The notes under the pieces are model-generated. The model searched no databases and was not told where the DNA came from. It saw only the letters and a program-made list of their open reading frames with translations. Positions 1 to 26,298 of a DNA stretch of 64,000 nucleotides are shown piece by piece; positions within the stretch are counted from its first letter, which is position 1, and each line of letters opens with the position of its first letter. This DNA is from Candidatus Poribacteria bacterium (GTDB lineage: Bacteria > Poribacteria > WGA-4E > PCPOR2b): assembly GCA_965116925.1 (NCBI GenBank), contig OZ220744.1, forward strand, positions 2,592,001 to 2,656,000, given 5' to 3'. The position numbers were made by a program, and so were the translations under genes.

Positions 1-264
1 GAGCGTAGACTCACCAATCATCCCGATAAGGACTGGAATCCCGTATGGTCCCCTGATAGTAAGCGCGTTGCCTTCGTGTCGAATAGAACTAGAATTTGGC
101 ACCCTGACATCTACGTAATGGACGCCGATGGCGGTAAGCTAGAAAACCTCACCGATCATCCCGATGATGACGAAGATCCTGCATGGATTGATCCTGCGTT
201 TGCAGTTTCTCCGGCAAGTAAGATATTCACGATATGGGGTTGGCTTAAACGGGTTGACCGATGA
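1..264 (+). CDS. 3' end of a TolB-like (PD40) beta-propeller protein, truncated by the window edge
   Basis: Frame 1 is open from base 1: ERRLTNHPDKDWNPVWSPDSKRVAFVSNR...IYVMDADGG...PAW...AVSPASKIFTIWGWLKRVDR*, with the same repeats and tail as the array. Confidence 0.9.
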   Translation, partial: ERRLTNHPDKDWNPVWSPDSKRVAFVSNRTRIWHPDIYVMDADGGKLENLTDHPDDDEDPAWIDPAFAVSPASKIFTIWGWLKRVDR

Positions 265-571: not shown

Positions 572-2179
572 CTAACCGGCCTGGTGACGTTCCACCGTGA
601 CTTGGCTCATGTTTTGAATCAGATCGATTAGGTCGGTAAGGTTATCGTCGAACTGGATTTCTAACGGGGAGAGTGAATAGTGAAAGTCGGGTGCCAATAG
701 GATCACCGCGAAATCCTCCTGTACGAGGGACAATATCTGCCGCCCAATTCTTCTTCTTGCCCCTAAGTCCCCTATACTGTTGAGTTGAGAGAGCATCTCG
801 TCAACTTGGGGATTGGAGTAGCCGAAAAAGTTATCTTCTCCGTCGGAATGGAAGAATCGTGATAGGTTATGGTATTCCAGACCAAAAACGGGTTGCGTTA
901 AAAAAGCGTCCGCCTCTTCCCGCATTTCTCCTTTGACAGAGATAGGATTCACGCCAGAAGAACCTATTGACTTGCCAATGAGGTGAACCAAATCGCGAAA
1001 AACGCTGCCCGAGCTGTAGATCCGAATGTCAAGAGGAGGATGAGGAAGTGGTGAAAGGTTTTCTTCCTCAGCAACCTGGCCCATGCGCAGATAGAGGTTA
1101 ATAGCCCGGTAATCGATCGCTTCTTTAAGTATCCTACAGTTCCTTTCATCCGATAGGGGTCTGTGATGCCGGTTGAGGAATAGGGCGTAGTAGCTATCTC
1201 CAAAAAAGGGCCACTGCTGCCAAGGCACCGTCGTTGGGAATTGGTAGAGGGACTGCATTGAATGGAGATGGATAGCAAGCAGATCCAGTGTGCCGTTCTC
1301 AACCGCCTTAACCGCATTGGCGGGGTGTGCGAAACGCCGCAAGGTTAACCCGTCAATGCTGCTGTCCCCTCCACGGTAGTAATCCGGATTCTGCTCAAAG
1401 CGAAAGGTCATGGCATCCGGGCGAAAATACTTCACTCGATAGGGGCCGGAGATCACACGGTAGGGTCGGGACGAATGGGAGGGGCGTGGGCAGACACCGC
1501 GCAGATGGAATGGGAATAACGGTTCTTCTTGAGAAAGTTGGACCCGAAGTTGGGTTTTGCCATCCGGTCTAATCTCTTCAATAACCGGTGCGATGCGGCT
1601 CTCAGAAAACGCTGCGATAACCTCTTCGAGGGTGATCGGCTTTCCATTGCTCCAACGGAGATCCTTTCTCAACATCACCTGCCACTGAGAGTTTCCTTTT
1701 ACCGCCTCGCAACCGGTTGCAAGGCGCCCTTCGATTTCTCCGTTTCGGCGGGACATCAGGAGGGGATCATAGCATAAGTGGTGCATCCAGTAACTCAGGA
1801 TCGGATCCGGACGCTCTGAGGATCCCATTTCGACGGCGGAGCTCAACTCCCCGATTTCAAGCCAGCTCAAAGGCACCTGCTCATCGGGCTGCTTGATGCG
1901 AAGGGTTCCGGTGTAGGAAATCCCAATATGTTCTTGAAGTTGTTGGGCGATCTCTTTGTGATCGGGGTCACGTCGGTTCAGCAGTGATAGCAGAAGTTGG
2001 ATCTGCTCCGGTTGCAGGACTGGTTCAGCCAACTGGTGTTTTAGAAGGTTCACCTCTTTTTCGCACCGCCTGACATGTCGCGAAGAAAGTCCAATCCCTT
2101 GGGCGATCTCTTCGTAGCCTGCGTGGGGGTGTTGCTGTTGATAAGCAATCAATTTGAGGAGCGTATCGACTTTGGGCAT
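572..2179 (-). CDS. SgrR-like regulator: N-terminal HTH fused to a family-5 solute-binding domain
   Basis: HTH-like YEEIAQGIGLSSRHVRRC; SBP5 motifs LRKDLRWSNGKPITLEEV, SGPYRV, NPDYY, NFFGYSNPQVDEML; no signal peptide; ATG at 2179 preferred over TTG at 2194. Confidence 0.75.
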   Translation of the reverse strand: MPKVDTLLKLIAYQQQHPHAGYEEIAQGIGLSSRHVRRCEKEVNLLKHQLAEPVLQPEQIQLLLSLLNRRDPDHKEIAQQLQEHIGISYTGTLRIKQPDEQVPLSWLEIGELSSAVEMGSSERPDPILSYWMHHLCYDPLLMSRRNGEIEGRLATGCEAVKGNSQWQVMLRKDLRWSNGKPITLEEVIAAFSESRIAPVIEEIRPDGKTQLRVQLSQEEPLFPFHLRGVCPRPSHSSRPYRVISGPYRVKYFRPDAMTFRFEQNPDYYRGGDSSIDGLTLRRFAHPANAVKAVENGTLDLLAIHLHSMQSLYQFPTTVPWQQWPFFGDSYYALFLNRHHRPLSDERNCRILKEAIDYRAINLYLRMGQVAEEENLSPLPHPPLDIRIYSSGSVFRDLVHLIGKSIGSSGVNPISVKGEMREEADAFLTQPVFGLEYHNLSRFFHSDGEDNFFGYSNPQVDEMLSQLNSIGDLGARRRIGRQILSLVQEDFAVILLAPDFHYSLSPLEIQFDDNLTDLIDLIQNMSQVTVERHQAG

Positions 2180-2268
2180 TTGTGCACCTGCCAATTCAGA
2201 TCCATCTTTGAAAGCGGAATCCCTAAAGATAACCTAAGTTGCTAGGTTCTGTTGACATTTAACGATCC

Positions 2269-2369
2269 GTAGGTTGGGTTGAACGGTTAAACGGCAATCC
2301 CTATCAAGTACAGTAAAGGCTCAGTTGTCCAACAACACCCGCTTATGGACAGATAGAGTGAAACCCAAC
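2269..2369 (+). repeat. 101-nt GTAG-headed element (long form of the GTAGGTTGGGTTGA...GAAACCCAAC repeat)
   Basis: Same ends and length as copies at 55268-55368 and 63024-63124. Confidence 0.8.
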
Positions 2370-2446
2370 TCCGTAACAATATACAGTATAAACCGCCTTG
2401 CCTTCAATTTGCAACCAGTTTTTTAATGATATATGGTAGATTTTTG

Positions 2447-2477
2447 AAGGGTTTGGACATATTAAGTCCAAACCCTT
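2447..2477. promoter_or_regulatory. Perfect 12-bp inverted repeat, candidate operator
   Basis: AAGGGTTTGGAC-ATATTAA-GTCCAAACCCTT between the divergent regulator and the array. Confidence 0.45.
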
Positions 2478-2566
2478 AAAAGTGACTGGATTTTTTATGT
2501 TGTGAGTTGGTATTCTTATTATTACAATTGGGAGTAAGATGATTGATACACGGGATTATGACTATT

Positions 2567-2698
2567 GGCTCATGTAAAAAGAAAGTGCAAAACACGAAGC
2601 GAAATCGTAGGGGCGGGGAAACCCCGCCCGCCGTAAGGGTTGGGGGACCCAACCCCTACGAATATTCGGTTTCTTTGCATTAAATCTTAACATGAGCG
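2567..2698. mobile_element. MITE family A (GGCTCATG...CATGAGC ends) with REP cargo
   Basis: Terminal inverted repeats; 9-bp direct repeat ATGACTATT at 2558-2566 and 2699-2707. Confidence 0.8.
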
Positions 2699-2856
2699 AT
2701 GACTATTTAATCCGAGTTGCTACTTTACTTGAGAACTTCTAGTAGGAATTTGTGTCTATATTATAACTATAATTGTAAAGGGGTTGCCAACACTAGCGGA
2801 CCTCTATCAACTCCAAAGGATAAGAGATCGATTTGAGAACATAGGAGGAAAGGCAG

Positions 2857-3828
2857 ATGCACCGAGGGAGCAATTTCACACCTTTGATTTTAGCTGGCGT
2901 TGTGGTCTTGGGTCTGACGCTGTTGGTGGTATGCGTTGACGCACAGGCACAGATTGCCTTCATGTCTGATAGGGATTGGGATGTTCTACAATTTGAGATC
3001 TACGTGATGGATACCGATGGCGGTAATCTGCGAAACCTGACTAATACCCCTGGTGATGACGAGTATCCCTCATGGTCTCCTGACGGCGAACAGATTGTCT
3101 TTACGGCTGATAGGAGTGGTAAGGATTGGAACCGGCAAATCTACGTGATGGACGCCGACGGGGCGAATCAACGAAACCTATCTGACAATGACTTTGATGA
3201 CTGGGACCCCGCATGGTCACCCGATGGCAAACGGATTGCCTTCGTATCTAGTAGGGATGGGGGCAGTGAAATCTACGTGATGAACGCTGATGGTAGCAAA
3301 CCCAGAAACCTCACCAATAATGGTGCTCCTGACTATGGGCCGTCCTGGTCCCCGGACGGTAGGCGCATTGTCTTTTATGCTTGGGGGGCTGGGAACATGG
3401 AAATCTACGTGATGAACGCCAATGGGGGCAACCCCAAAAACCTCACCAATAATGCAAGGTCTGATAGGAACCCCTCATGGTCTCCTGATGGTGAGCACAT
3501 TGCCTTTGAGTCATGGAGGGATAAGAACGGTGAAATTTATGTGATGGACGCCGATGGGGGTAATCCGCGTAATCTCACCAATCATCCCTTTAAGGATACG
3601 GAGCCCTCATGGTCCCCTGACGGGAGGCGGATTGTCTTCGTGTCTGATAGAGAGGCGGATGGGAACCCCGATATTTTTGTGATGAACGCCGATGGGAGTA
3701 ACCCTAAAAATCTCACCAACCATCCCGAGGATGACCTTACGCCTGCATGGTTTGGTTCGGCTTTTTCGGTTGCTCCCGCCGGTAAGACCCTCACACTATG
3801 GGGACGGGTCAAACAGGCAGACCGCTAA
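2857..3828 (+). CDS. Secreted six-bladed TolB-like/PD40 propeller, array gene 1
   Basis: SD AGGAGG; signal peptide ending AQA; 5x PxWSPDG plus terminal PAW; tail [16 protein letters not shown]. Confidence 0.92.
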   Translation: MHRGSNFTPLILAGVVVLGLTLLVVCVDAQAQIAFMSDRDWDVLQFEIYVMDTDGGNLRNLTNTPGDDEYPSWSPDGEQIVFTADRSGKDWNRQIYVMDADGANQRNLSDNDFDDWDPAWSPDGKRIAFVSSRDGGSEIYVMNADGSKPRNLTNNGAPDYGPSWSPDGRRIVFYAWGAGNMEIYVMNANGGNPKNLTNNARSDRNPSWSPDGEHIAFESWRDKNGEIYVMDADGGNPRNLTNHPFKDTEPSWSPDGRRIVFVSDREADGNPDIFVMNADGSNPKNLTNHPEDDLTPAWFGSAFSVAPAGKTLTLWGRVKQADR

Positions 3829-3895
3829 CTACCACTGTTGAGAGAACCGTGTTTAAGGATAAAAAACCGATTTGAAACGATAGGAGGTATAGCAA

Positions 3896-4906
3896 ATGCA
3901 TCGAAGACATAGTCTCGCACCTTTGATTTTAGCTAGCGTTGTGGCATTAAGTCTGGCACCGATGATGGTAGCCATTGATGCACAGGCACAGATTGCCTTC
4001 TCGTCTGATAGGGATGGAGACAATGAAATCTACGTTATGGACCCTGATGGGGGCAATCTACGAAAACTCACCAATAATTCCGATGGCGATCGGGATCCCG
4101 TATGGTCGCCCGACGGCAAACGGATAGCCTTCAAGTCCGATAGGGACGGGCACGTTGACAGACACGGTCGGCCCACTCATGACATCTACGTGATGGACGC
4201 CGATGGAAGCAATCAGCAGAACCTGACTAACAATCCCGCTGATGACTGGGATCCTTCATGGTCGCCGGACGGTAAACGGATTGTTTTTACCTCTTGGAGG
4301 GATGGTCCCTTTAACATTGAAGTCTACGTGATGGATGCTGATGGAAGCAATCTTCAAAACCTGACTAACAATCCTCGTGATGACCGGAATCCCTTTTGGT
4401 CACCCTACGGTGCACACATTGTCTTCAGTGCGCGGAGGAAAGGGCACTTTGAAAACAAGTTTTCAATCACCCATGAAGTCTACGTGATGGATGCCGATGG
4501 GGGAAATCAACGAAGACTCACTGAAAATCGGAGTAATGACTGGGATCCCTCATGGTCTCCTGACGGCAAACGGATCGCCTTCATGGCTGATAGGAAGGGT
4601 AACCTTGAAAAATTTAACATTTACGTGATGGATGCCGATGGTGGTAATCTTCAAAATCTCACCAATCATCGCGCTTGGGATGGGGCTCCATCATGGTCCC
4701 CCGACGCTCAACGGATTGTCTTCCATTCTGAACGAGATGGGAACTATGAAATCTATGTGATGGATGCCGATGGTGGTAATCTTCAAAATCTCACCAATCA
4801 TCCGCGTAGTGACTCTAGTCCTGCATGGTATACTCCTCCCTTTGCAGTTGCTCCCGCAGGCAAACAGTTTACAATGTGGGGTTGGCTCAAACAGGTTGAC
4901 CGATAA
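3896..4906 (+). CDS. Secreted TolB-like/PD40 propeller, array gene 2
   Basis: Same architecture; tail AVAPAGKQFTMWGWLK. Confidence 0.92.
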   Translation: MHRRHSLAPLILASVVALSLAPMMVAIDAQAQIAFSSDRDGDNEIYVMDPDGGNLRKLTNNSDGDRDPVWSPDGKRIAFKSDRDGHVDRHGRPTHDIYVMDADGSNQQNLTNNPADDWDPSWSPDGKRIVFTSWRDGPFNIEVYVMDADGSNLQNLTNNPRDDRNPFWSPYGAHIVFSARRKGHFENKFSITHEVYVMDADGGNQRRLTENRSNDWDPSWSPDGKRIAFMADRKGNLEKFNIYVMDADGGNLQNLTNHRAWDGAPSWSPDAQRIVFHSERDGNYEIYVMDADGGNLQNLTNHPRSDSSPAWYTPPFAVAPAGKQFTMWGWLKQVDR

Positions 4907-4973
4907 CTGCCACTGTTGAAAGAATGGTGTTTAAGAATAAACAACCGCTTTGAAAACATAGGAGGAAAGGCAG

Positions 4974-5969
4974 ATGCAACGGAGATACAGTCTCGTACAG
5001 TTGATTTTAGCAATCGTAGCAGTCTTGGGGCTAATGCCGCTGATGGTAGGTGCCGATCCAGAGCCACAGATTGCTTTCACGTCTGAGAGAGATGGGCACC
5101 GGCAAATCTACGTGATGGACATTGACGGAAAGAATCAGCGAAGACTCACCAAAAATCTCTTTGATGAATGGGATCCTTCATGGTCACCGGATGGTGAACG
5201 CATTGCTTTTGCTTCTAGTGAAGACCGGCACACTGTGGTTGGGAGCCGTCACATCTACGTGATAGATGCCCATGGCGGAATTGCGCAAAGACTCTCCAAG
5301 AATCGCTTTTCTGAATGGCATCCTGTATGGTCTCCTGACGGTAAATGGATTGCCTTTACTACTAGTCGGGTTGAGGACGTTGCGGGTGGTCACTGGCAGA
5401 TCTATGTGATGGATGCGAACGGGCAGAATCCGCGCAGACTCTCTAACGATGGTGTGGATGATCAGCGTCCCTCTTGGTCACCGGATGGCAAACGGATTGC
5501 CTTTACTTCTAGTAGGGATGGTCAGTTGGAAGTCTATGTGATGGACGCGGATGGGAAGAATCAACAAAGACTCACCAACAGTCCTGACGTTCATATTCAT
5601 AATTTGCATCCTGCATGGTCGCCGGACGGTGAACACATTGCCTTTACTGCTGACTGGCAAATCCATGTGATGGATGCCGATGGTGGTAATCCGCGAAACC
5701 TCACCAATAATCGCGGTTCGCACTCGCATCCGTCATGGTTGCCGGACGGAGAACGAATTGTCTTTGCGTCTAAAAAGGATGATAATATGGAAATCTACCT
5801 GATGGATGCCGATGGGAAGAATCAACAAAGACTCACCGATAATCGCCATGATGATGTGGATCCTGCATGGTTTGACCCTGCTTTTGCGGTTGAAGTTGCT
5901 CCTTTTGCGGTTGCTCCGGTAGATAAAAGACTCACGATATGGGGTTGGCTCAAACAGGTTGACCGCTAA
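4974..5969 (+). CDS. Secreted TolB-like/PD40 propeller, array gene 3
   Basis: Same architecture; tail AVAPVDKRLTIWGWLK. Confidence 0.92.
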   Translation: MQRRYSLVQLILAIVAVLGLMPLMVGADPEPQIAFTSERDGHRQIYVMDIDGKNQRRLTKNLFDEWDPSWSPDGERIAFASSEDRHTVVGSRHIYVIDAHGGIAQRLSKNRFSEWHPVWSPDGKWIAFTTSRVEDVAGGHWQIYVMDANGQNPRRLSNDGVDDQRPSWSPDGKRIAFTSSRDGQLEVYVMDADGKNQQRLTNSPDVHIHNLHPAWSPDGEHIAFTADWQIHVMDADGGNPRNLTNNRGSHSHPSWLPDGERIVFASKKDDNMEIYLMDADGKNQQRLTDNRHDDVDPAWFDPAFAVEVAPFAVAPVDKRLTIWGWLKQVDR

Positions 5970-6032
5970 CTGCCATTGTTGAGAGAATGGTGTTTAGGAA
6001 AAAACGATTTGACTACAAAGGAGGAAAGACAG

Positions 6033-7007
6033 ATGCGACGAAGGGACAATTTCACACACTTGATTTTAGCGATCGTAGTAGTCTTGGGTCTAATGCCGCT
6101 GCTGGTATGTGTTGACGCACAGGCACGGATTGCCTTTGAGTCTGATAGGGATTGGGACGTTCTAAAGTTTGAAATCTATGTGATGGACACCGATGGTGGT
6201 AATCAGCGAAACCTCACTAACAATCCTGGTGATGATAGGGACCCCTCATGGTTGCCGGACGGCCAACGAATTGCCTTCTCGTCTGATAGGAATGATATGG
6301 GTGGGAACCGGCAAATCTACGTGATGGACACCGATGGTGGTAATCAGCGAAATCTTTCTAACAATGACTTTGATGACTGGGATCCCGCATGGTCTCCTGA
6401 CGGTCAACGGATAGCCTTTGTGTCTAATAGGAAGGGAGCTCGTGAAATCTACGTGATGGACGCCGATGGGGGCAACCCTGAAAATCTCTCTAACAATCCC
6501 TTTCCTGACTATTCACCCTCATGGTCTCCTGACGGTAAACGGATTGTCTTTGTTTCCGTTAGGGGTGGGAAACCAGACATCTACGTGATGGACGACGATG
6601 GGGGCAAGCCTAAAAACCTCTCCAATAATGATCGTACTGACGAAGATCCCTCATGGTCTCCTGACGGTAAACGCATTGCTTTTACTTCCTTGAGGAATAT
6701 GGGAAACCGGGACATCTATGTGATGGACGCGGATGGAGGTAATCAGCAAAACCTCACCAATCATCCCGATAAGGACTTCCACCCCTCATGGTCACCCGAT
6801 GGTAAAAGCATTGCCTTCGTGTCGAATAGGAATAGGGATTTGAATCGGGACATCTATGTGATGGACGGCGATGGGGGTAATCTACGAAACCTCACCAATC
6901 ACCCTGATGATGACGAAGTTCCTGCATGGCTTAACGCTGTTCTTTCAGTTTCTCCCACCGGCAAAAAGTTTACAATGTGGGGGCGACTCAAACAGGGCGA
7001 CCGATAG
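6033..7007 (+). CDS. Secreted TolB-like/PD40 propeller, array gene 4
   Basis: Start moved to ATG 6033 after SD AGGAGG (MRRRDNF...); tail SVSPTGKKFTMWGRLK. Confidence 0.92.
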   Translation: MRRRDNFTHLILAIVVVLGLMPLLVCVDAQARIAFESDRDWDVLKFEIYVMDTDGGNQRNLTNNPGDDRDPSWLPDGQRIAFSSDRNDMGGNRQIYVMDTDGGNQRNLSNNDFDDWDPAWSPDGQRIAFVSNRKGAREIYVMDADGGNPENLSNNPFPDYSPSWSPDGKRIVFVSVRGGKPDIYVMDDDGGKPKNLSNNDRTDEDPSWSPDGKRIAFTSLRNMGNRDIYVMDADGGNQQNLTNHPDKDFHPSWSPDGKSIAFVSNRNRDLNRDIYVMDGDGGNLRNLTNHPDDDEVPAWLNAVLSVSPTGKKFTMWGRLKQGDR

Positions 7008-7073
7008 CTGTCATTATTGAGAGAACAGTGGTTAAGAATAAAAACCACTTTGAAAACAGGGGAGGAAAGACAG

Positions 7074-8090
7074 ATGCAACGAAGGGGCAAACTCAAATAT
7101 ATGATTTTAGCGAGCGTTGTTGTGTTAGGTCTAGTGCTGCTGATGGTAAACGTTGATGCACAGGCACGGATTGCCTTTGTGTCTACTAGGGATGGGAACG
7201 CTGAAATCTACGTGATGGACGACGATGGGGGTAATCAACAAAGGCTCACCAATAATCGCCATGGTGACGCTTCACCCTCATGGTCTCCAGACGGTAAACG
7301 GATTGCCTTCATTTCCGATAGGGATGGGCACGTTAATATACGCGATTCTCCTAATTATGAAATTTACGTGATGGATGCCGATGGACGAAATCAGCAAAAC
7401 CTCACTAACGATCCCCATAATGATAGGTCTCCCTCGTGGTCCCCCGACGGAAAACGCATCGTATTTTCGTCTGATAGGGATAATAATAGGGATCATAACA
7501 TTGAAATCTACGTGATGGACGCCGATGGAAGCAATCAGGAAAGACTCACTAACAATCTCACAGAGGACCAGTATCCCTCGTGGTCTCCCGACGGTAAACG
7601 GATTGCCTTCAGTGCCCGCAGGGATGGGCACTTTGAAAACGACTTTGGGATCACTTATGAAATTTACGTGATGGACACCGATGGGAAGAACGAACAAAGA
7701 CTCACTGAAAATCGCAATAATGACTGGAATCCCTCATGGTCACCTGATGGTAAACGAATTGCCTTCATGTCTGATAGGAAGGGAGACGTTGTAAACTGGG
7801 ACATCTACGTGATTGACGTCGATGGGGGGAATCCTCAAAACCTCACTGAAAATCGCGTTTATGAATCTTCACCCTCATGGTCTCCCGATGGCAAACGGAT
7901 TGCCTTCATGTCTTACAGGGATGAGAACGCTGAAATTTACGTTATGGACGCCGATGGTGGAAATCAGCAGAACCTCACCAATAATCGCCATGATGACTTT
8001 AGTCCTGCATGGTTGAACTCTCCTTTTGCAGTTACTCCCGCAGGCAAACAGTTTACAATGTGGGGTTGGCTTAAACAGGTTGACCGATAA
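7074..8090 (+). CDS. Secreted TolB-like/PD40 propeller, array gene 5
   Basis: Start ATG 7074 after GGAGG; tail AVTPAGKQFTMWGWLK. Confidence 0.92.
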   Translation: MQRRGKLKYMILASVVVLGLVLLMVNVDAQARIAFVSTRDGNAEIYVMDDDGGNQQRLTNNRHGDASPSWSPDGKRIAFISDRDGHVNIRDSPNYEIYVMDADGRNQQNLTNDPHNDRSPSWSPDGKRIVFSSDRDNNRDHNIEIYVMDADGSNQERLTNNLTEDQYPSWSPDGKRIAFSARRDGHFENDFGITYEIYVMDTDGKNEQRLTENRNNDWNPSWSPDGKRIAFMSDRKGDVVNWDIYVIDVDGGNPQNLTENRVYESSPSWSPDGKRIAFMSYRDENAEIYVMDADGGNQQNLTNNRHDDFSPAWLNSPFAVTPAGKQFTMWGWLKQVDR

Positions 8091-8160
8091 CTGCCATTGT
8101 TAGGAGAACGGTATTTAAGAATAAAAAACCGATTTAAGACCAGAAGAAGAGGAATAGCAG

Positions 8161-9150
8161 ATGCAATGGAGAACCAATCTGACACATTTGATTTTAGCTA
8201 GCGTTGTCGTGCTAGGGCTAACGCTGCTGATGGTAGCCGTTGACGCACAGGCGCAGATTGCCTTCATGTCTCATAGAGGTGGGAACTGGGACATCTACGT
8301 GATGGACGCCGATGGGGGTAATCAGCGAAATCTCACTAACAATCCTGATGATGATCAGTACCCCTCCTGGTCTCCTGACGGCAAACGGCTTGCCTTCGTG
8401 TTTGATAGGAAAGATAGGGATTGGAACCGGCAAATCTACGTGATGGACGCCGATGGTGATAATCAGCGAAACCTTTCTAACAATGACTCTGATGAATGGG
8501 GACCCTCCTGGTCTCCTGACGGCAAACGGCTTGCATTTGCGTCTTATAGAGAGGCGGAGTGGCCAAACTATGACATCTACGTGATGGATACCGATGGTGG
8601 TGATCCGCGTAAACTCACCAAGAATCGCCAGATTGATAAATCCCCCTCCTGGTCTCCTGACGGTAAACGGATTGCCTTCGTGTCTAATAGGGATGGAAAC
8701 TTTGAAATCTACGTGATGGATGCCAATGGGCGTAATCAGCGAAACCTCACCAATGATCGCCATAATGACCTTTCACCTTCATGGTCTCCCGACGGTAAAC
8801 GGATTGCATTCACATCTGATAGGGATTGGCTCCTTGACAAAGACGGTTTTCCCACTTATGAAATCTATGTGATGGATGCCGATGGGAGGAATCAACAAAG
8901 ACTCACTGAAAATGGCGTTTATGACTGGGAACCCTCCTGGTCTCCTGACGGTAAATGGCTTGCCTTCGGGTCTGATAGGAATGGGAACGCTGAAATCTAC
9001 GTGATGGATGCCGATGGGGAGAATCCTCAAAACCTCACCAATAATCGCCATGGTGACTATGGTCCTGCATGGTTTAACTCCCCTTTTTCGGTTGCTCCCG
9101 CAGGCAAAAAGTTTACAATATGGGGACGGCTTAAACAGGTTGAACGCTAA
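8161..9150 (+). CDS. Secreted TolB-like/PD40 propeller, array gene 6
   Basis: Same architecture; tail SVAPAGKKFTIWGRLK. Confidence 0.92.
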   Translation: MQWRTNLTHLILASVVVLGLTLLMVAVDAQAQIAFMSHRGGNWDIYVMDADGGNQRNLTNNPDDDQYPSWSPDGKRLAFVFDRKDRDWNRQIYVMDADGDNQRNLSNNDSDEWGPSWSPDGKRLAFASYREAEWPNYDIYVMDTDGGDPRKLTKNRQIDKSPSWSPDGKRIAFVSNRDGNFEIYVMDANGRNQRNLTNDRHNDLSPSWSPDGKRIAFTSDRDWLLDKDGFPTYEIYVMDADGRNQQRLTENGVYDWEPSWSPDGKWLAFGSDRNGNAEIYVMDADGENPQNLTNNRHGDYGPAWFNSPFSVAPAGKKFTIWGRLKQVER

Positions 9151-9215
9151 TTGCCACTGTTGAGAGAACGGTGTTTGGGAAAAAAAACGATTTGACTACA
9201 AAGGAGGAAAGACAG

Positions 9216-10235
9216 ATGCACCGAAAAGACAGGATCGCCCATTTGATTTTAGCCAGCGTTATAGTTTTGGGTCTAATGCCGCTGATGGTATGCGTTGATG
9301 CACAGGCACGGATTGCTTTCATGTCCCATCGGGATGGGAACCCTGAAATCTATGTGATGGAGACCGATGGAGGGAATTTGCGTAGACTCACCAATAATTC
9401 CGATAAGGACTTGTCTCCCTCATGGTCACCGGACGGCAAACGGATTGCCTTCATATCTAATAGGGATGGGCATGTCCACGCTAGACACGGTTGGTCCACT
9501 TATGAAATCTATGTGATGAATGCCGATGGGAGCAATTCTCGAAACGTCACTAACAATCCCTTTAGTGACAGGTCTCCGTCATGGTCTCCTGACGGTCAAC
9601 GTATTGTCTTCACGTCTGCTAGAGATGAGGCTAATCCTCAGAACTCTGAGATCTACGTGATGGATGCCGATGGGAACAACCTTCAAAGGCTCACTGAGAA
9701 TGTCGGTGATGACAGGGATCCGTCGTGGTCTCCCGACGGTCAACGGATTGTCTTCAGTGCCGGTAGGGACGAGCACGTTGAAAACAAGTTTGGCATCACT
9801 GATGAAATCTACGTGATGGATGCCGATGGGGGGAATGAACAAAGACTCACTGAAAATCGGAATAATGACTGGGATCCGTCATGGTCACCGGACGGTCAAC
9901 GGATTGCCTTCGCGTCTGATAGAAAGGGGGACTTGGTAAGTTTTGATATCTACGTGATGGATGCCGATGGTGGGAATCAGCAAAAACTCCTCAATAATCG
10001 AGGTTGGGACAGTTCTCCCTCATGGTCTCCGAATGGTGAACGGATTGCGTTCACGTCTGAGAGGGATGGAAACTATGAAATCTACGTGGTGGATGCCGAT
10101 GGGGGGAATCAGCAAAACCTCACCAATAATCGCCATGGGGATGCCAATCCTGCATGGCTGAACTCTCCTTTTTCGGTTTCTCCCGCGGATAAGATATTCA
10201 CGAGGTGGGGTTGGCTCAAACAGGGTGGTCAATAA
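9216..10235 (+). CDS. Secreted TolB-like/PD40 propeller, array gene 7
   Basis: Start ATG 9216 after AGGAGG; tail SVSPADKIFTRWGWLK. Confidence 0.92.
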   Translation: MHRKDRIAHLILASVIVLGLMPLMVCVDAQARIAFMSHRDGNPEIYVMETDGGNLRRLTNNSDKDLSPSWSPDGKRIAFISNRDGHVHARHGWSTYEIYVMNADGSNSRNVTNNPFSDRSPSWSPDGQRIVFTSARDEANPQNSEIYVMDADGNNLQRLTENVGDDRDPSWSPDGQRIVFSAGRDEHVENKFGITDEIYVMDADGGNEQRLTENRNNDWDPSWSPDGQRIAFASDRKGDLVSFDIYVMDADGGNQQKLLNNRGWDSSPSWSPNGERIAFTSERDGNYEIYVVDADGGNQQNLTNNRHGDANPAWLNSPFSVSPADKIFTRWGWLKQGGQ

Positions 10236-10300
10236 CTGCTATTATTGAGGTAAGGGTGTTTGAGGAAAAAATCGGTTTGAAAATAGAGGAGTAAAGACAG

Positions 10301-11329
10301 ATGCAAGGGAGATACAATCTCGGACATTTGATTTTAGCTAGCGTTGTAGCGTTGGGTCTGACACTGCTGATGGTAGATGTTGACGCACAGGCACGGATTG
10401 CCTTTGTGTCTCATAGGGACGGAAACCCTGAAATCTACGTGATGGATGCTGATGGGGGTAATCCGCGTAGACTCACCAATCATCTCGCTGATGACCATTC
10501 ACCCTCATGGTCTCCTGACGGTAAACGGATTGCCTTCGTGTCTAAAGCTTTTGAGTCTGATAGAGATGGAGAGGTTCACTTTAGAGACGGTAGACCCACC
10601 TCTGAAATCTACGTGATGGGTGTCGATGGGGGCAATCCGCAAAACCTTACTCTGAACCCTGGTAGGGATTTCTCTCCCTCATGGTCCCCCGACGGTAAAC
10701 GTATTGCCTTCTCGTCTAATAGGGAGGGGCACTTTAACTATGAAATCTACGTGATGGGTGCCGATGGGGGCAATCCTCAAAGACTAACTAACGATCCTCA
10801 TGCCGACATCCAGCCCTCATGGTCGCCCGACGGTAGACGGATTGTCTTCAGTGCCCGTAGGGCTGGGCACTTTGAAACCAAGTTTTCGATTACTAACGAA
10901 ATCTATGTGATGGATGCCGATGGAAGTAATCAACAAAGACTCACTGAGAATCATAAGTATGACTGGGCTCCTGTATGGTCACCGGACGGCAAACGAATTG
11001 CCTTCCAGTCTGATAGGAAGGGGGACCTTCAAAATTTTGCAATCTATGTGATGGCTGCGGATGGGGGGAATGAACAAAGACTCACCAATCATCTCGTTTA
11101 TGATGGGTCTCCCTCATGGTCTCCCGACAGCAGACGTATTGCCTTCGTGTCTGATAGGGATGGGAACTATGAAATCTACGTGATGGACGCCGATGGGGGG
11201 AATCAGCGAAACATCACTAAGCATGGCAGTTGGGACCTTTCTCCTGCATGGTATACCCCCGCTCTTGCAGTTGCACCCGCAGGTAAGACACTCACAATGT
11301 GGGGGAGGCTCAAACAGGTTGACCGATAA
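10301..11329 (+). CDS. Secreted TolB-like/PD40 propeller, array gene 8
   Basis: Same architecture; tail [16 protein letters not shown]. Confidence 0.92.
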   Translation: MQGRYNLGHLILASVVALGLTLLMVDVDAQARIAFVSHRDGNPEIYVMDADGGNPRRLTNHLADDHSPSWSPDGKRIAFVSKAFESDRDGEVHFRDGRPTSEIYVMGVDGGNPQNLTLNPGRDFSPSWSPDGKRIAFSSNREGHFNYEIYVMGADGGNPQRLTNDPHADIQPSWSPDGRRIVFSARRAGHFETKFSITNEIYVMDADGSNQQRLTENHKYDWAPVWSPDGKRIAFQSDRKGDLQNFAIYVMAADGGNEQRLTNHLVYDGSPSWSPDSRRIAFVSDRDGNYEIYVMDADGGNQRNITKHGSWDLSPAWYTPALAVAPAGKTLTMWGRLKQVDR

Positions 11330-11391
11330 CTGCCATTATTGAGAGAATGGTGGTTAAAAAAAACGATTTGAAAACAGAGGAGGCAGGACAG

Positions 11392-12363
11392 GTGCAACGA
11401 AGAACCAATCTTGGACGTATGATTTTATCCATCGTTATGGTTTTAGTGCTGACATCGCTGATGGTGGTCGTTGACACACAGGCACAGATTGCCTTCGTGT
11501 CTAATAGGGATGGAAACTTTGAAATCTACGTGATGAACATCAATGGGAAGAATCAGCGAAGACTTACCAAGAACCGCGTCGGTGACTGGTCACCGTCATG
11601 GTCACCCGATGGTAAACAGATTGCCTTTGAGTCTGAGAGGGATGGGAACCGTGAAATCTATGTGATGGATGCAGCTGGGAAGAATCAGCGCAGACTCACT
11701 GACCATGACCCTAATGACTTGTTAGGATCATGGTCACCTGATGGTGGACACATCGTCTTTTCTTCGCTTGGCGAAATCTATGTGATGGACGCCGATGGTG
11801 GGAATCAACACAGACTCACCCAAAATGACCAGAATGACGCGAAGGACTATGCACCGTCATGGTCACCCGATGGTAATCGGATGGTCTTTTCGTCTGAGAG
11901 GGATGGGCACTTTAGAGAAGACGATGGAAACACGACTACTGAGATCTACGTGATGGACGCGGATGGGAAGAACCCTCAAAGACTCACTGACAATCGCGTT
12001 GATGACTGGTCACCGTCATGGTCACCCGATGGTAATCGGATTGTCTTCCAGTCTAAGAAGGATGGGAACTGGGAAATCTATGTGATGGACGCGGCTGGGA
12101 AGAATCAGCGCAGACTCACCAAGAGCCGCCTTGATGACTGTTGTCCCTCATGGTCTCCTGATGGCAAGCGTATTGCCTTTAATTCCTTTAGGGGTGGGAC
12201 CAGTGACATCTACGTGATGGATGCCGATGGGGATAATCAGCGAAACCTCACTAAACATGACAGTTGGGACCTTTATCCTGCATGGTATACCCCTCCTCTT
12301 GCGGTTGCACCCGCAGGAAAGAAGCTCACAATCTGGGGGTGGCTCAAGCAGGTTGACCGATAG
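11392..12363 (+). CDS. Secreted TolB-like/PD40 propeller, array gene 9
   Basis: GTG start at 11392 after AGGAGG, aligned with paralog starts; tail AVAPAGKKLTIWGWLK. Confidence 0.9.
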   Translation: MQRRTNLGRMILSIVMVLVLTSLMVVVDTQAQIAFVSNRDGNFEIYVMNINGKNQRRLTKNRVGDWSPSWSPDGKQIAFESERDGNREIYVMDAAGKNQRRLTDHDPNDLLGSWSPDGGHIVFSSLGEIYVMDADGGNQHRLTQNDQNDAKDYAPSWSPDGNRMVFSSERDGHFREDDGNTTTEIYVMDADGKNPQRLTDNRVDDWSPSWSPDGNRIVFQSKKDGNWEIYVMDAAGKNQRRLTKSRLDDCCPSWSPDGKRIAFNSFRGGTSDIYVMDADGDNQRNLTKHDSWDLYPAWYTPPLAVAPAGKKLTIWGWLKQVDR

Positions 12364-12430
12364 CTTCCATTATTGAGAGAACGGTGTTTAAGGATAAAAA
12401 ACTGATCTGAAAACAGAGGAGGGAAGACAG

Positions 12431-13399
12431 ATGAAACGACGAGACAATCTCGCATATTTCCTTTTGGCTGGCGTGTTAGTCTTGGGTCTGACACCGCTGA
12501 TGGTAGTGGTTGATGCGCAGGCACAAATTGCCTTCACATCGAATAGGGATGGAAACTTTGAAATCTACGTGATGAGCATCAATGGGAAGAATCAGCGAAG
12601 ACTCACCAAAAACCGCGGCGACGACTGGTCACCGTCATGGTCCCCCGATGGCAAGCGCATTGTTTTTAGTTCGGGACAAGATGGGAACCGTGAAATCTAT
12701 GTGATGGATGCCGATGGAGGGAATCAACTAAACCTCACTAACAGTCCCCAGGGTGACTATTCGCCGTCATGGTCACCCGATGGTCAACGCATTGTCTTTT
12801 CTTCCGCCCGTGAAATCTATGTGATGGACGCCGATGGGGGGAATCAACAGCGCCTCACCCAAGATGACCATAAGGGTTATTCACCGTCATGGTCACCCGA
12901 TGGTAAGCGGATCGTCTTCTCGTCTCAGAGGCAGGGACACTTTATAGATGACCTTGGAAACGTCACTAATGAAATCTATGTGATGGACGCCGACGGAGGT
13001 AATGAACAAAGGCTGACTGAAAATCGTGATGAGGACGGGTCACCGTCATGGTCACCCGACGGTCAACGGATTGCCTTCTCGTCTTGGAAGCCTAGGAGCT
13101 GGAACAGCCTTGAAATCTACGTGATGGATACCGATGGGAAGAATAAGCGTAGACTCACCAAGAATAACCATCCTGACGATTCGCCGTCATGGTCCCCTGA
13201 TGGTGAACGTATTGTCTTTGATTCCAGTAGGGATGGGAACACTGAAATCTATATGATGGACGCCGATGGGGGTAAGCAGCGAAGACGCACTCAACATGGT
13301 AGTTATGACGGTGCTCCTGCATGGTTTCGTCCTGCGCTTGCAGTCGCTCCTGTAGGTAGAAAAATCACGATGTGGGGTTGGTTCAAGGTTGACCGATAA
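12431..13399 (+). CDS. Secreted TolB-like/PD40 propeller, array gene 10
   Basis: Same architecture; tail [16 protein letters not shown]. Confidence 0.92.
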
Positions 13400-13464
13400 C
13401 TGCCATTATTGAGAGAACGGTATTGAAGGAAAAAACCGATTTGAAAACAGAGGAGGCAGGACAG

Positions 13465-14412
13465 GTGCAACGAAGAACCAATCTTGGACGTATGATTTTA
13501 TCCATCGTTATGGTTTTAGTGCTGACATCGCTGATGGTGGTCGTTGAGGTACAGGCACAGATTGCCTTCGTGTCTAATAGGGATGGAAACTTTGAAATCT
13601 ACGTGATGAACATCAATGGGAAGAATCAGCGAAGACTTACCGATAATCCCGCTGGGGACTATGAACCGTCATGGTCCCCCGATGGTAAACAGATTGCCTT
13701 CGTGTCTACTATGCATGGGATCCATGAAATCTATGTGATGGACGCGGATGGGAAGAATCCTCAGAGACTCACCAAAAACCGCCTTGATGACCAGTCACCC
13801 TCATGGTCTCCTGATGGCAAGCGTATTGCCTTTACTTCCTTTAGAGATGGAACCAGTGACATCTACGTGATGGACGCCGATGGGGAGAATCAACATAGAC
13901 TTACTGACAATCGCGTTGATGACCAGGCACCGTCATGGTCACCCGCTGGTAATCGAATTGTCTTCCAGTCTGAGAGGAACGGAAGGTGGGAAATCTATGT
14001 GATGGACGCGGATGGGAAGAATCCTCAGAGACTCACCAAAAACCGCCTTGATGACCAGTCACCCTCATGGTCTCCTGATGGCAAGCGTATTGCCTTCACT
14101 TCCTTTAGGGGTGGGACCAATGACATCTACGTGATGGACGCCGATGGGGGCAACCAACTAAATCTCACTAACAATCCCAATCATGACCAGTCACCCTCAT
14201 GGTCTCCTGATGGCAAGCGTATTGCCTTTACTTCCTTTAGGGATGGAACCAGTGACATCTACGTGATGGACGCTGATGGGGATAATCAGCGAAATCTCAC
14301 TAAACATGGTGGTCATGACCGTGCTCCTGCATGGTATACCCCTGCGCTTGCAGTTGCACCCGCAGGTAAGACACTCACAACGTGGGGTTGGCTCAAACAG
14401 GTTGACCGATAG
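13465..14412 (+). CDS. Secreted TolB-like/PD40 propeller, array gene 11
   Basis: GTG start at 13465 after AGGAGG; tail [16 protein letters not shown]. Confidence 0.9.
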
Positions 14413-14479
14413 CTTCCATTATTGAGAAAACGGTGTTCAACGACAAAAAACCGATTTGAGAACAGTGGAGGAAAGACAG

Positions 14480-15427
14480 ATGCAGCGGAGAACCAATCTG
14501 ACACCTTTGATTTTAGCTGTCGTTGTAGCGTTGGGTCTGACACCACTGATGGCAGTCGTTGAAGTACAGGCACAGATTGTCTTCGTGTCTAATAGGGATG
14601 GGAACCCTGAAATCTACGTGATGGATACCGATGGTGGTAATCAGCGTAGACTCACTAATAATCCCCAGTATGATGGGTCTCCCTCATGGTCGCCGGACGG
14701 TAAACGCATTGCCTTCACGTCTGAGAGGAATGGGAACCAAGAAATCTACGTGATGGACGCCGATGGAGGGAATCTACGAAAACTCACTAAAAATCCCAAA
14801 CATGACTGGTCTCCCTCATGGTCACCCGACGGCAAACGGATTGCCTTCGTGTCTCTTAGAGGCGGGCTCCCTGAAATCTACGTGATGGACGCCGACGGGG
14901 GTAATGAACAAAGACTTACTCAAAATCTCTCTGATGATCAGTACCCCTCATGGTCTCCTGACGGTAAACAGGTTGCCTTCTCGTCTAATAGGGATGGGAA
15001 CTATGAAATTTACGTGATGGACGCCGATGGGGGAAATCAACAAAGACTTACGAAAAGTATAAAGAATGACCTGTCTCCCTCATGGTCTCCTGACGGCAAA
15101 CGGATTGCCTTCAGTTCCCGTAGGGATGGGAACAGTGACATCTACGTGATGGACGCCGATGGAGGGAATCTACGAAAACTCACTAAAAATCCCGTTGATG
15201 GTCGGTCTCCCTCATGGTCACCCGACGGTGAACGGATTGCCTTCGTGTCTGAGAGGCTTGGGAACAGTGACATCTACGTGATGGACGCTGACGGGGGGAA
15301 TCTACGAAGACTCACCAATAATCGCCATGATGATACTAATTCTGCATGGCTGAACTCTGCGTTTTCGATTTCTCCCGCCGGCAAAAAGTTTATAATGTGG
15401 GGGCGACTCAAGGAGGTCAACCGATAA
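14480..15427 (+). CDS. Secreted TolB-like/PD40 propeller, array gene 12
   Basis: Start ATG 14480 after GGAGG; tail SISPAGKKFIMWGRLK. Confidence 0.92.
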   Translation: MQRRTNLTPLILAVVVALGLTPLMAVVEVQAQIVFVSNRDGNPEIYVMDTDGGNQRRLTNNPQYDGSPSWSPDGKRIAFTSERNGNQEIYVMDADGGNLRKLTKNPKHDWSPSWSPDGKRIAFVSLRGGLPEIYVMDADGGNEQRLTQNLSDDQYPSWSPDGKQVAFSSNRDGNYEIYVMDADGGNQQRLTKSIKNDLSPSWSPDGKRIAFSSRRDGNSDIYVMDADGGNLRKLTKNPVDGRSPSWSPDGERIAFVSERLGNSDIYVMDADGGNLRRLTNNRHDDTNSAWLNSAFSISPAGKKFIMWGRLKEVNR

Positions 15428-15463
15428 CTGCCACTGTTGAGAGGACAGCGTTTGTTGAGTCAA

Positions 15464-15564
15464 CTGTAGGTCGAGATTCATATCTCGACATCTTCCTGCC
15501 ATGGTCATCCCGATATATCGGGATGACCACGAAAGACTGTCGATTTTGGAAAATCGACCTACAG
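15464..15564. repeat. REPIN-like inverted REP pair enclosing a 28-nt perfect palindrome; possible bidirectional terminator
   Basis: CTGTAGGTCGA...TCGACCTACAG around TGGTCATCCCGATA/TATCGGGATGACCA (15502-15529), between convergent genes. Confidence 0.7.
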
Positions 15565-15582
15565 AAATCTATGTAACCGTCC

Positions 15583-16707: not shown

Positions 16708-16892
16708 GTTCAAAGCTGCCCCATAGGAACGCGCAATGAATTGCGCTACTACAAACGGGGAGGCAACATGCCCCGCCTACGGATTTGATCCATCCCGAAA
16801 TCTGTCAAAACGCGAAAAACTAAATGGTCATACTACATTGTCATATAAATGTAGCGCAAACTGTTAGTTTGCGGGTTTGGCTCACAATCTAA

Positions 16893-17009
16893 ATGAAGAT
16901 TAAAAAAATAATTCGGTAATTTGCTAGCGACACCGGCGCGGTTGAAAACCGCGCCTACCGTGTGTTTGGAGGCAAATCGGGATTACCGATTTAAATACTT
17001 AAACTTCAT
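16893..17009. mobile_element. MITE-like element with ~27-bp imperfect TIRs around a REP core
   Basis: ATGAAGATTAA...TCGGTAAT / ATTACCGA...TTAAACTTCAT enclosing GGCGCGGTTGAAAACCGCGCCTAC. Confidence 0.6.
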
Positions 17010-17211
17010 ACAGATTGTGGTACAAAAGCCTCCTTTAGATACTTCCCCCACAAACCGACTTGGCTATGGCTATCCAAGCCAAGCGATGAGTGCCTTATCA
17101 TGATTTATTTGACGGAGCACTACCTTCCTCATTTTTTGATAGTATTCCCCATCCGATTTGTGATAAAATTCTTTTCGCATATTTGATATAACAGATTGTT
17201 GGAGAATATAC

Positions 17212-24823: not shown

Positions 24824-24971
24824 TTTCTAGCCTCCGTGCTAGTTCATTAGTTCATTTGTGTTGGGTTTCACGATTACCGTTCAACCCAACCTACAATACT
24901 AGTCATTAGTTCATTAGTTCATTTGTGTTGGGTTTCACTATCGTTCAACCCAACCTACAATATTCTATGTT

Positions 24972-25046
24972 GGCTCATAGCATGAAGAGAAACCGAGTTT
25001 TTTCTTGAAAACTCGGTTTCTGTTGCACGATTTCTTTACATGAGCC
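24972..25046. mobile_element. MITE family A copy
   Basis: GGCTCAT...CATGAGCC, flanks TCTATGTT/TCTATGCT; cargo AACCGAGTTTT..AAAACTCGGTT. Confidence 0.7.
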
Positions 25047-25053
25047 TCTATGC

Positions 25054-26280: not shown

Positions 26281-26298
26281 TTTGATTGGTTCGTTGGT

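Follow-up and report, generated by a model that had tools for sequence, protein, structure and literature searches.

A tandem array of PD40 propeller genes in a Candidatus Poribacteria genome: variable loops, gene turnover and a shared C-terminal tail

Poribacteria are uncultured, the records of their relatives come largely from sponges, and how a symbiont recognizes and holds on to its host is an open question. We analyzed a 64,000-nt stretch of the genome of a Candidatus Poribacteria bacterium (GCA_965116925.1, contig OZ220744.1, positions 2,592,001-2,656,000; the whole stretch is called the window, and the genome G000), in which twelve similar genes for PD40-type beta-propeller proteins lie head to tail. 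What could such an array be for? An earlier note, made from the sequence alone, had proposed an undescribed system. This proposal did not hold. The array is an expanded gene family, part of a large family of exported PD40 proteins that have a C-terminal tag in common, and not a new kind of system: it is the largest cluster of a 56-member family that lies within a class of 122 open reading frames (ORFs) with the same tail, and expansion of TolB-like and WD40 proteins is already in print at the level of domains, as far as the accessible parts of PMC5735121 and PMC3909097 go. On balance, the twelve genes, or fourteen with two upstream, probably make up a repertoire of binding modules of the cell envelope, with a particular set of loops on one face of each.

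An array of intact propeller genes

Between positions 2857 and 15427, twelve ORFs of 322-357 amino acids without internal stops follow one another on the plus strand, with a start-to-start spacing of 1015-1091 bp (about 1.06 kb) when the conserved ATG or GTG behind the Shine-Dalgarno (SD) sequence is taken as the start. The earlier note had described twelve intact units of about 1.05 kb, each with an SD, a signal peptide, six blades and a tail; the ORFs, the PD40 matches and an AlphaFold2 model agree with this description. The thirteenth copy that it placed at 1-264, as a sign that the family continues out of the window, is real, and a further complete copy lies upstream. The array thus totals 14 PD40 genes, 12 in the window and two upstream, split by a minus-strand gene for an SgrR-like regulator, and all 14 copies are intact. 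Its parts are as follows (window coordinates unless prefixed with G000).

G000:2590260-2591219: further complete PD40 copy, upstream of the window
1..264, plus strand: 3′ part of the second PD40 propeller gene of the array, tail included; the translation ends ...SPASKIFTIWGWLKRVDR and a stop; full gene G000:2591263-2592264
572..2194, minus strand: SgrR-like regulator gene, inside the array; SBP_bac_5 at E 3e-22, weak HTH_PafC at E 0.009
2195..2856, no strand: intergenic, 662 bp from the regulator to gene 1, with two interspersed high-copy repeats (~2235-2375, ~2555-2715; 60-140 blastn copies per genome) and the conserved leader with SD (~2787-2856)
2857..3828, plus strand: PD40 propeller gene 1, 323 amino acids; supported by ORF, Pfam, alignment and structure model
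3829..3895, plus strand: example of an inter-unit spacer, with stop, promoter-like stretch, CGATTTGA.AACAGAGGAGG SD and start; each of the 12 genes has this element in front of it
3896..4906, plus strand: PD40 propeller gene 2, 336 amino acids; orthologs of 96/86/85/83% identity in four related genomes
4974..5969, plus strand: PD40 propeller gene 3, 331 amino acids; tail with an internal 7-residue duplication
6033..7007, plus strand: PD40 propeller gene 4; ATG behind SD, longest ORF from 5976
7074..8090, plus strand: PD40 propeller gene 5; longest ORF from 7017
8161..9150, plus strand: PD40 propeller gene 6, 329 amino acids
9216..10235, plus strand: PD40 propeller gene 7; longest ORF from 9171
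10301..11329, plus strand: PD40 propeller gene 8, 342 amino acids
11392..12363, plus strand: PD40 propeller gene 9; probable GTG start behind SD, longest ORF from 11347
12431..13399, plus strand: PD40 propeller gene 10, 322 amino acids
13465..14412, plus strand: PD40 propeller gene 11; probable GTG start, longest ORF from 13423
14480..15427, plus strand: PD40 propeller gene 12; longest ORF from 14456
15428..15582, no strand: intergenic, closing the array; carries interspersed palindromic repeats that have 54-57 copies in the genome

Each unit consists of an SD-bearing leader, a basic and hydrophobic N-terminus, repeated PD40 units, a closing ...PAW strand and a 25-residue tail. The N-terminus, which ends ...DAQAQ just before IAF and forms a helix (residues 8-24) in the structure model, is probably a Sec signal peptide, judging by its composition. 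PD40 (PF07676) matched all four copies that we scanned against Pfam (E 5e-54 to 5e-70, five scored stretches each), and the scan returned PD40-type families only. In end-to-end alignment the twelve copies show 53-69% identity to the first copy; the segments WSPDG and IYVMDxDG are invariant or nearly so, much as had been noted before for WSPDG and YVMDADG. The inter-unit spacers measure 63-71 nt and the 12 align at 70% mean column identity. The last ~35 nt of the leader, including the CGATTTGA.AACAGAGGAGG SD, are conserved across the genome's arrays before most of the 46 close copies that we aligned, and may be a shared promoter or translational control element. Over the 75 nt compared upstream of these 46 genes, two upstream variants can be told apart, one in array-internal genes and one in first genes. 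A promoter and terminator scan found 18 and 20 sites, against 20.7 and 14.6 expected, and so did not rise above chance.

We also asked whether the array could be an assembly artefact, a concern raised by the earlier note. Two sequencing runs from two studies, one of which may be the source sample, yielded unitigs that match exactly (0 differences) all along the array; the gene sequences are therefore not assembly artefacts, while the gene order is beyond what such short contigs can confirm. Partly palindromic repeats flank the array (2235-2375, 2555-2715, 15448-15580 and 16713-17030; about 50-140 blastn copies in the genome); in the unitig runs they lead to very high values of summed depth and to false joints across the array. 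Horizontal acquisition was considered and rejected, as the GC content of the array (0.47-0.50) lies inside the range of the window (0.46-0.56).

AlphaFold2, run with a 12-sequence alignment, predicted a six-bladed propeller of 24 strands (mean predicted local distance difference test score, pLDDT, 82.8; predicted template modeling score 0.80; 192 residues at or above 90), which closes by joining the N-terminal B, C and D strands and the C-terminal A strand into one blade. The array proteins thus show the repeated unit and the closed propeller of PD40 propellers (PF07676), with six blades in the model. The best matches that Foldseek found in the PDB were the TolB propellers 1c5k, 4r40 and 2hqs (query TM-score, TMq, 0.74-0.77 at 24-26% identity; 0.77 at 24% for 1c5k), with S9 peptidase propellers ranking after them. 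TolB (TIGR02800; PDB 1C5K, 2HQS, 4R40) and the array proteins have in common a six-bladed PD40 propeller behind a predicted Sec signal peptide.

The array proteins are nevertheless not TolB. They lack the N-terminal TolB domain, as the strands of the model begin at residue 32, right after the signal helix, and PF04052 had no match in the 99%-complete genome, under conditions in which E. coli and Caulobacter controls were positive. They also number 56 paralogs instead of one and carry an extra conserved tail. TIGR02800 matched the four copies at E 1e-74 to 1e-110, with three under the curated cut-off of 343 bits (251, 248 and 263 bits) and one over it (368 bits; 13423-14412). No tol or pal gene was found among the scanned neighbors in the window and just upstream, which encode the regulator, oxidoreductases or dehydrogenases, a dipeptidase and an amidohydrolase; the genome as a whole was not searched for tolQRA or pal. 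The earlier distinction from true TolB accordingly stands.

Loop variation, selection and gene turnover

To locate the variation, we calculated column entropy over the 46 close genomic copies and classed the columns by the strand order of the model. Mean entropy was 2.03 bits in the B-C loops and 1.69 in the D-A loops, compared with 0.51 in the A-B turns, 1.06 in the C-D turns and about 1.0 in the strands. The B-C and D-A pair averaged 1.85 bits against 0.84 for the A-B and C-D pair, a difference reached by none of 10000 permutations. Where four strands run up and down to form a blade, the B-C and D-A connections share one axial end, and the A-B and C-D turns occupy the opposite one. Together with this topology, the concentration of variation in the B-C and D-A loops points to a constant scaffold with one variable face, the face being assigned from strand order and the textbook blade rather than from coordinates. 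The earlier note had proposed just such a scaffold and face, with variation that is not spread evenly over the fold, and had singled out the loop after F.S as highly variable in length; this B-C loop indeed ranges from 4 to 22 residues among the 46 copies. Its lengths fall into blade-specific classes that recur in subsets of paralogs; at the third repeat, for instance, 17 of 45 copies have 16-17 residues.

We then estimated ratios of nonsynonymous to synonymous substitution (dN/dS) by the Nei-Gojobori method with site bootstraps, in 10 disjoint nearest paralog pairs and in 8, 5 and 4 ortholog pairs with three related genomes. The scaffold is under strong purifying selection, with ratios of 0.22 (0.19-0.26) between nearest paralogs and 0.12-0.15 between orthologs. 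The B-C loops gave 1.13 (0.90-1.48) between nearest paralogs and 0.34-0.39 between orthologs, and the D-A loops 0.69 (0.50-0.91) and 0.21-0.43. Corresponding values were 0.29 and 0.15-0.33 for the tail and 0.55 and 0.46-0.65 for the signal peptide; flanking genes gave 0.06-0.08. When all 23 disjoint paralog pairs were included, the ratios came to 0.80 for the B-C and 0.72 for the D-A loops. In the ortholog comparisons every upper bootstrap limit was below 1. Thus, the B-C and D-A loops diverge near-neutrally between nearest paralogs and are conserved between orthologs, where their ratios of 0.2-0.4 indicate that each copy is conserved once formed. Loop change at an approximately neutral rate after duplication, followed by conservation, fits differentiation of paralogs and not continuing hypervariation. 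The earlier note had expected selection to be non-uniform, which is borne out by the paralogs (loops 0.7-1.1, scaffold 0.22); for a face that keeps on diversifying, the purifying selection on ortholog loops is the wrong sign.

The arrays themselves turn over. The same flanking genes, whose proteins are 89-99% identical, bracket arrays in G000 and three related genomes, G005, G009 and G017. By a motif filter these syntenic arrays hold 14, 19, 24 and 12 PD40 genes, respectively (69 in total), and one further G005 array ORF has the tail and falls below the PD40-motif count. Blocks of genes are rearranged between the four, so the arrays are not identical among relatives, in keeping with the earlier note. 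A maximum-likelihood tree of the 69 genes contains 12 single-copy, orthogroup-like clades (three with four genomes, five with three and four with two), which take in 11 of the 14 G000 genes and only 8 of the 24 G009 genes; 10 of the 24 G009 genes have their sisters in G009 only. Even in G005, the closest relative (flank dS 0.29 from G000), genes 3 and 8 have no ortholog anywhere, their best matches (62% and 70%) being at paralog level. Tandem birth and death is thus how the family evolves. Of 101 genomes sampled from the phylum, 58 have matches at E 1e-60 or better, and high counts (9 to at least 21, with the best 21 candidates taken per genome) are confined to two genera, g1 and g5. In three runs labeled sponge metagenome, 27-29% of sampled sequence words were present; runs with 8-13% of the words were left out of the evidence.

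Within G000, a family profile retrieved 56 ORFs at or above 350 bits, all 56 with the tail. At or above 150 bits there are 87 PD40 genes in 30 clusters, amounting to 1.47% of the genome, and the window's cluster is the largest with 14 genes. Identity is 0.62 within and 0.61 between arrays, and 9 of the 13 array members present in the 46-copy alignment have their closest paralog in a different array. Blades of one protein are about as similar to one another (0.67) as blades of paralogs are, whether they have the same number (0.66) or a different one (0.64). At synonymous sites the pooled divergence of blades (0.67, 0.79 and 0.80) is far from saturation, and where residues are identical their codons differ in 30-34% of cases, compared with an expected 57%. 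None of the 1035 pairs among the 46 copies shares an exact tract of 100 nt or more (longest 91 nt, median 26), which led us to reject recent gene conversion; short-tract homogenization of the scaffold is possible. We infer a fairly brief burst of amplification, of blades first and of genes afterwards, and then a long period in which the copies diverged separately. Highly repetitive propellers amplified from single blades have been described (Pereira and Lupas 2022, PMC9218822), and the array resembles them in that blades of one protein share 67% identity and that having the same blade number makes blades of paralogs no more alike. It differs in its fixed six-blade plan, its blade-specific loop classes and its amplification at the level of genes rather than blades. 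That paper, in the parts accessible to us, lists the related DPPIV and peptidase S9 families and names neither PD40/TolB nor Poribacteria.

The C-terminal tail and type IX sorting domains

All copies end in a tail of about 25 residues, V.P.GK..T.WG.[LI]K plus 2-5 residues, which takes the form ...F[SA]V[AS]P.GK..T.WG.LKQVDR in the array. An iterated profile showed that 122 ORFs of the genome end in this tail, 74 of them PD40 and 48 not. We scanned 20 of the non-PD40 ORFs and found nine Laminin_G_3 (LamG), four Kelch, one DUF3108-like and one 3-keto-disaccharide hydrolase protein and five without a family. All 20 are 233-366 amino acids long with signal-peptide-like starts, and the tail class of the genome includes ConA-like proteins. 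Across the families only the W and the K of the tail are invariant, and V and G come close. In the scanned proteins the tail is covered by no Pfam or NCBIfam model; nor does it have an LPXTG, PEP-CTERM or GlyGly-CTERM layout, as no hydrophobic stretch follows the motif and no NCBIfam sorting-signal model matched.

A link to type IX secretion (the T9SS) emerged from the cargo of the same genome. The T9SS type A sorting domain (TIGR04183 / PF18962) has 71 matches in G000, 70 of them over the cut-off. The four array copies scanned had none, and the array ORFs, which end 2-5 residues past the motif, lack the C-terminal sorting domain (~70-100 residues) of such cargo. They do share with it a junction motif, V.P..K..T.[WLF]G.[IV]K, at the site that the PorU sortase processes in T9SS. 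The tail motif stands directly before NxPNPF in 13 of 56 sorting-domain ORFs, two found by regular expression and 11 (with L or F for W) judged by eye, and three sorting-domain ORFs reach the tail profile with 97-102 residues remaining after the match.

The clearest case is a cluster of five tandem PD40 paralogs, 60-83% identical and adjoined by a Kelch protein with the tail (G000:1967695-1977451; loci L078 and L080-L083). Three of the five run ...VEP..K.FTTLG.IKRTSLMQNFPNPFNPETW... into the sorting domain, and two stop at ...FTTLGAVKRSALSKD, 5-6 residues after the motif, so that the tail-only form ends about where the sorting domain would begin. Paralogs with and without the sorting domain indicate that the tail-only form is the sorting-domain-less form of one T9SS-type cargo class. 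Sorting domains on WD40-type and other repeat proteins of Poribacteria were reported by Kamke et al. 2014 (PMC3909097), who, in the parts of the paper accessible to us, did not find the machinery. In G000 the candidates for machinery all score under the curated cut-offs: two PorU-like ORFs with 310 and 289 bits (420 required), PorV-like ORFs with 88 bits (250 required) and one SprA-like ORF of 2187 amino acids with 62 bits (200 required); GldL and GldM had no match in the genome, but the control genomes were silent too.

In a search of 1.84 billion representative sequences, which carries no taxonomy, the tail profile matched 429 proteins at E 0.001 or better. The motif lies 12 or fewer residues from the end in 123 of the top 150, and 31 full-length representatives comprise nine PD40, eight Kelch, nine LamG, one DUF3108-like and one 3-keto-disaccharide hydrolase protein and three without a family. 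Eighteen of the top 150 are unrelated repeat proteins without the WG.[IL]K core. The profile also matches unrelated proteins (P0040-P0043, P0065, P0076, P0166) with 5-11 internal PQVAVD..G.PTVVW-like repeats, from which the tail may resemble one hairpin of another beta-repeat family. A word-based search that used the final 44 residues of a tail-bearing LamG protein retrieved 38 close orthologs only and gives no view of breadth. In the array model the tail (residues 303-323) has a pLDDT below 50. A second model, of a PD40 protein with motif and sorting domain (5-sequence alignment), folded in its propeller and had a pLDDT below 50 at residues 364-475, and is uninformative on the shape of the motif.

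Regulators and the role of the arrays

The gene at 572-2194 has the layout of SgrR-type regulators, an HTH-like N-terminus and a family-5 solute-binding domain. Its match to SgrR itself is, by contrast, negligible (NF010149, E 0.005, 15.6 bits; cut-off 476), and it adjoins propeller arrays. Six paralogs of the regulator occur in the genome; four have a PD40 array no more than 5 kb away, and two of these four are directly divergent from it. The sixth (G000:3586839-3588443), not near a PD40 array, has one in-frame TGA and may be a pseudogene or contain a recoded codon. In all seven Poribacteria loci that we fetched, PD40 genes with the tail lie within 10 kb of the regulator. By analogy with SgrR-SgrS we looked for a small RNA and found no complement of the leader core within 1.5 kb of any of the six paralogs. 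Two G000 loci (G000:4672076-4682496 and G000:1890285-1898536) and three fetched ones (L067, L068 and L072) have, in this order, the regulator, a PMT_2 glycosyltransferase, a TylF-like methyltransferase and a PD40 array. The PMT_2-type protein (567-636 amino acids) has three paralogs in the genome, two within 1.3 kb of a tail-bearing gene; the TylF-like gene is single-copy; and both proteins are 89-93% identical across genomes. This module hints that array proteins or their ligands are glycosylated.

As to expression, which the earlier note had suggested following up, contigs from two metatranscriptome libraries of one study touch 8 of the 12 genes in the pieces listed, at a depth of 3-7, compared with 39-47 for the neighboring oxidoreductase gene. 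With 1-11 differences each, the pieces come from a related strain; they cannot rank expression and may include DNA carry-over, and so give a weak hint that several copies are transcribed. Array parts that these libraries leave uncovered are given no weight.

How might such proteins work? The Sec pathway would export the propellers, and the variable face would bind different ligands, perhaps host-matrix or environmental glycans or peptides. The tail may serve as a docking or anchoring tag that copies the C-terminus left on T9SS cargo after cleavage of the sorting domain, and the regulators may switch arrays on in response to a small ligand. A number of points weigh against a repertoire of envelope binding modules. 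The ligand, the location and the processing of the array proteins are all putative. Proteins without a sorting domain may never leave the periplasm, and GldL and GldM were not found (with silent controls). As the tail is unstructured in the model, its conservation is what speaks for docking, and the variable face derives from strand order rather than coordinates. Paralog loop ratios around 1 fit relaxed constraint as well as positive selection, and the loop alignments between paralogs are uncertain. The regulator counts overstate independence because the loci are kin, as segmental copies or orthologs, and the RNA-library contigs touch the array only thinly.

The last of the alternatives to be discarded would be the one that stays closest to TolB, in which the proteins are periplasmic housekeeping proteins, Tol-Pal-like partners or enzyme scaffolds, and the tail is a leftover linker without a role in sorting. 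The structural matches and TIGR02800 scores, with one copy over the cut-off, speak for it; a protein with a Sec signal peptide and no T9SS sorting domain is expected in the periplasm; and as the genome has no canonical protein with the TolB N-domain, some PD40 protein might fill the role. We nonetheless consider it unlikely, given 56 close copies that each have loops of their own and are gained and lost species by species, the missing N-domain, three of four scanned copies under the TolB cut-off, scanned neighbors that are not tol or pal, and a tail that is conserved (0.15-0.33) and common to unrelated folds, unlike a dead linker. Quite unlikely, in our estimate, is largely neutral amplification of a recombination-prone repeat family, with drifting loops and no differentiated functions. 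The near-neutral loops of nearest paralogs, the equal likeness of blades within and between proteins and the number of matches per congener, which runs from a few to over 60, would suit it. By contrast, all 14 copies are intact, ortholog loops are constrained with bootstrap limits below 1, the B-C length classes are blade-specific and shared by paralog subsets, and 1.47% of the genome is kept in the family.

Two further readings draw on the resemblance to diversifying loci. TolB-like propellers might intercept TolB-box peptides, as decoys or sensors against Tol-dependent bacteriocins or phages; the fold, the paralog diversification and the gene turnover recall arms-race families. This is very unlikely, however, as ortholog loops are conserved, two propellers and the regulator matched no PADLOC family, no phage or toxin genes were seen among the neighbors scanned, and the same tail on lectin-type LamG and Kelch modules points to a general class of binding modules. 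Programmed variation, with one expressed copy and silent recombining cassettes as in pilE/pilS or vlsE, is scarcely credible. Similar head-to-tail units, a constant frame with variable segments and differences in order and content between relatives are what it would produce, and the earlier note had seen a cassette-like library here. Yet cassettes of the pilS and vls type are promoterless or startless, depend on one expression site and share long tracts, whereas here every one of the 12 units comes with an SD, a start codon, a signal peptide and the conserved leader, and no two of the 46 copies share more than 91 nt. Orthologs persist across species under purifying selection, no recombinase gene or other diversification machinery was seen among the neighbors scanned, and RNA-library contigs touch more than one copy (weak, given possible carry-over). 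There is thus no sign of cassette switching, and the repertoire of binding modules remains our preferred reading.

A bolder extension of this repertoire strikes us as unlikely. The tail might be a stand-alone envelope-docking tag derived from T9SS cargo; by imitating the C-terminus that cargo has once its sorting domain is gone, it would let small PD40, Kelch and LamG modules that lack this domain plug into the same receptor to form an exchangeable coat of binding modules, with arrays switched by ligand-sensing SgrR-like regulators (at some loci together with PMT_2 and TylF-like genes) supplying a species-specific repertoire for the host or its matrix.

How much of this is new? TolB-like and WD40 entries are reported as enriched in sponge microbiomes (PMC5735121), and repeat-protein expansions of sponge symbionts (WD40, TolB-like, LRR, TPR, ankyrin) share with the present family a large, lineage-specific increase of exported repeat proteins. 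In their accessible parts these reports (PMC5735121, PMC3909097) count domains and do not describe the PD40 subfamily, the tandem arrays, the loop pattern, the tail or the regulator. Our search of the literature on Poribacteria with TolB, PD40, propeller or type IX yielded domain-count reports only, and a text search for the tail motif (TTWG, WGxIK and similar) nothing relevant among the matches listed. Relative to the literature searched, the PD40 subfamily, its birth-and-death dynamics, the contrast in loop selection between paralogs and orthologs and the link to a regulator are new, as is the within-genome evidence that the tail is the pre-sorting-domain junction of T9SS-type cargo.

With dozens of small soluble propellers that have copy-specific loops, a conserved tag and dedicated regulators, the family is a testable candidate for host recognition. 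The tag links it to the unexplained T9SS-type sorting domains of the phylum, and natural paralog pairs with and without a sorting domain allow a direct experiment on the tag's role. The family also offers a clean bacterial case of repeat-protein birth and death, with fast loop change after duplication and conservation thereafter.

Two other genes in the window deserve mention. At 28062-29405 (minus strand) lies a gene for a TPR and PD40 protein of 447 amino acids without the tail, beside genes of the outer-membrane efflux (OEP), HlyD and AcrB types (23216-27726, 35879-38992). At 53736-55130 (plus strand), an AAA_15/AAA_21 ATPase of the abortive-infection-module type is unrelated to the array.

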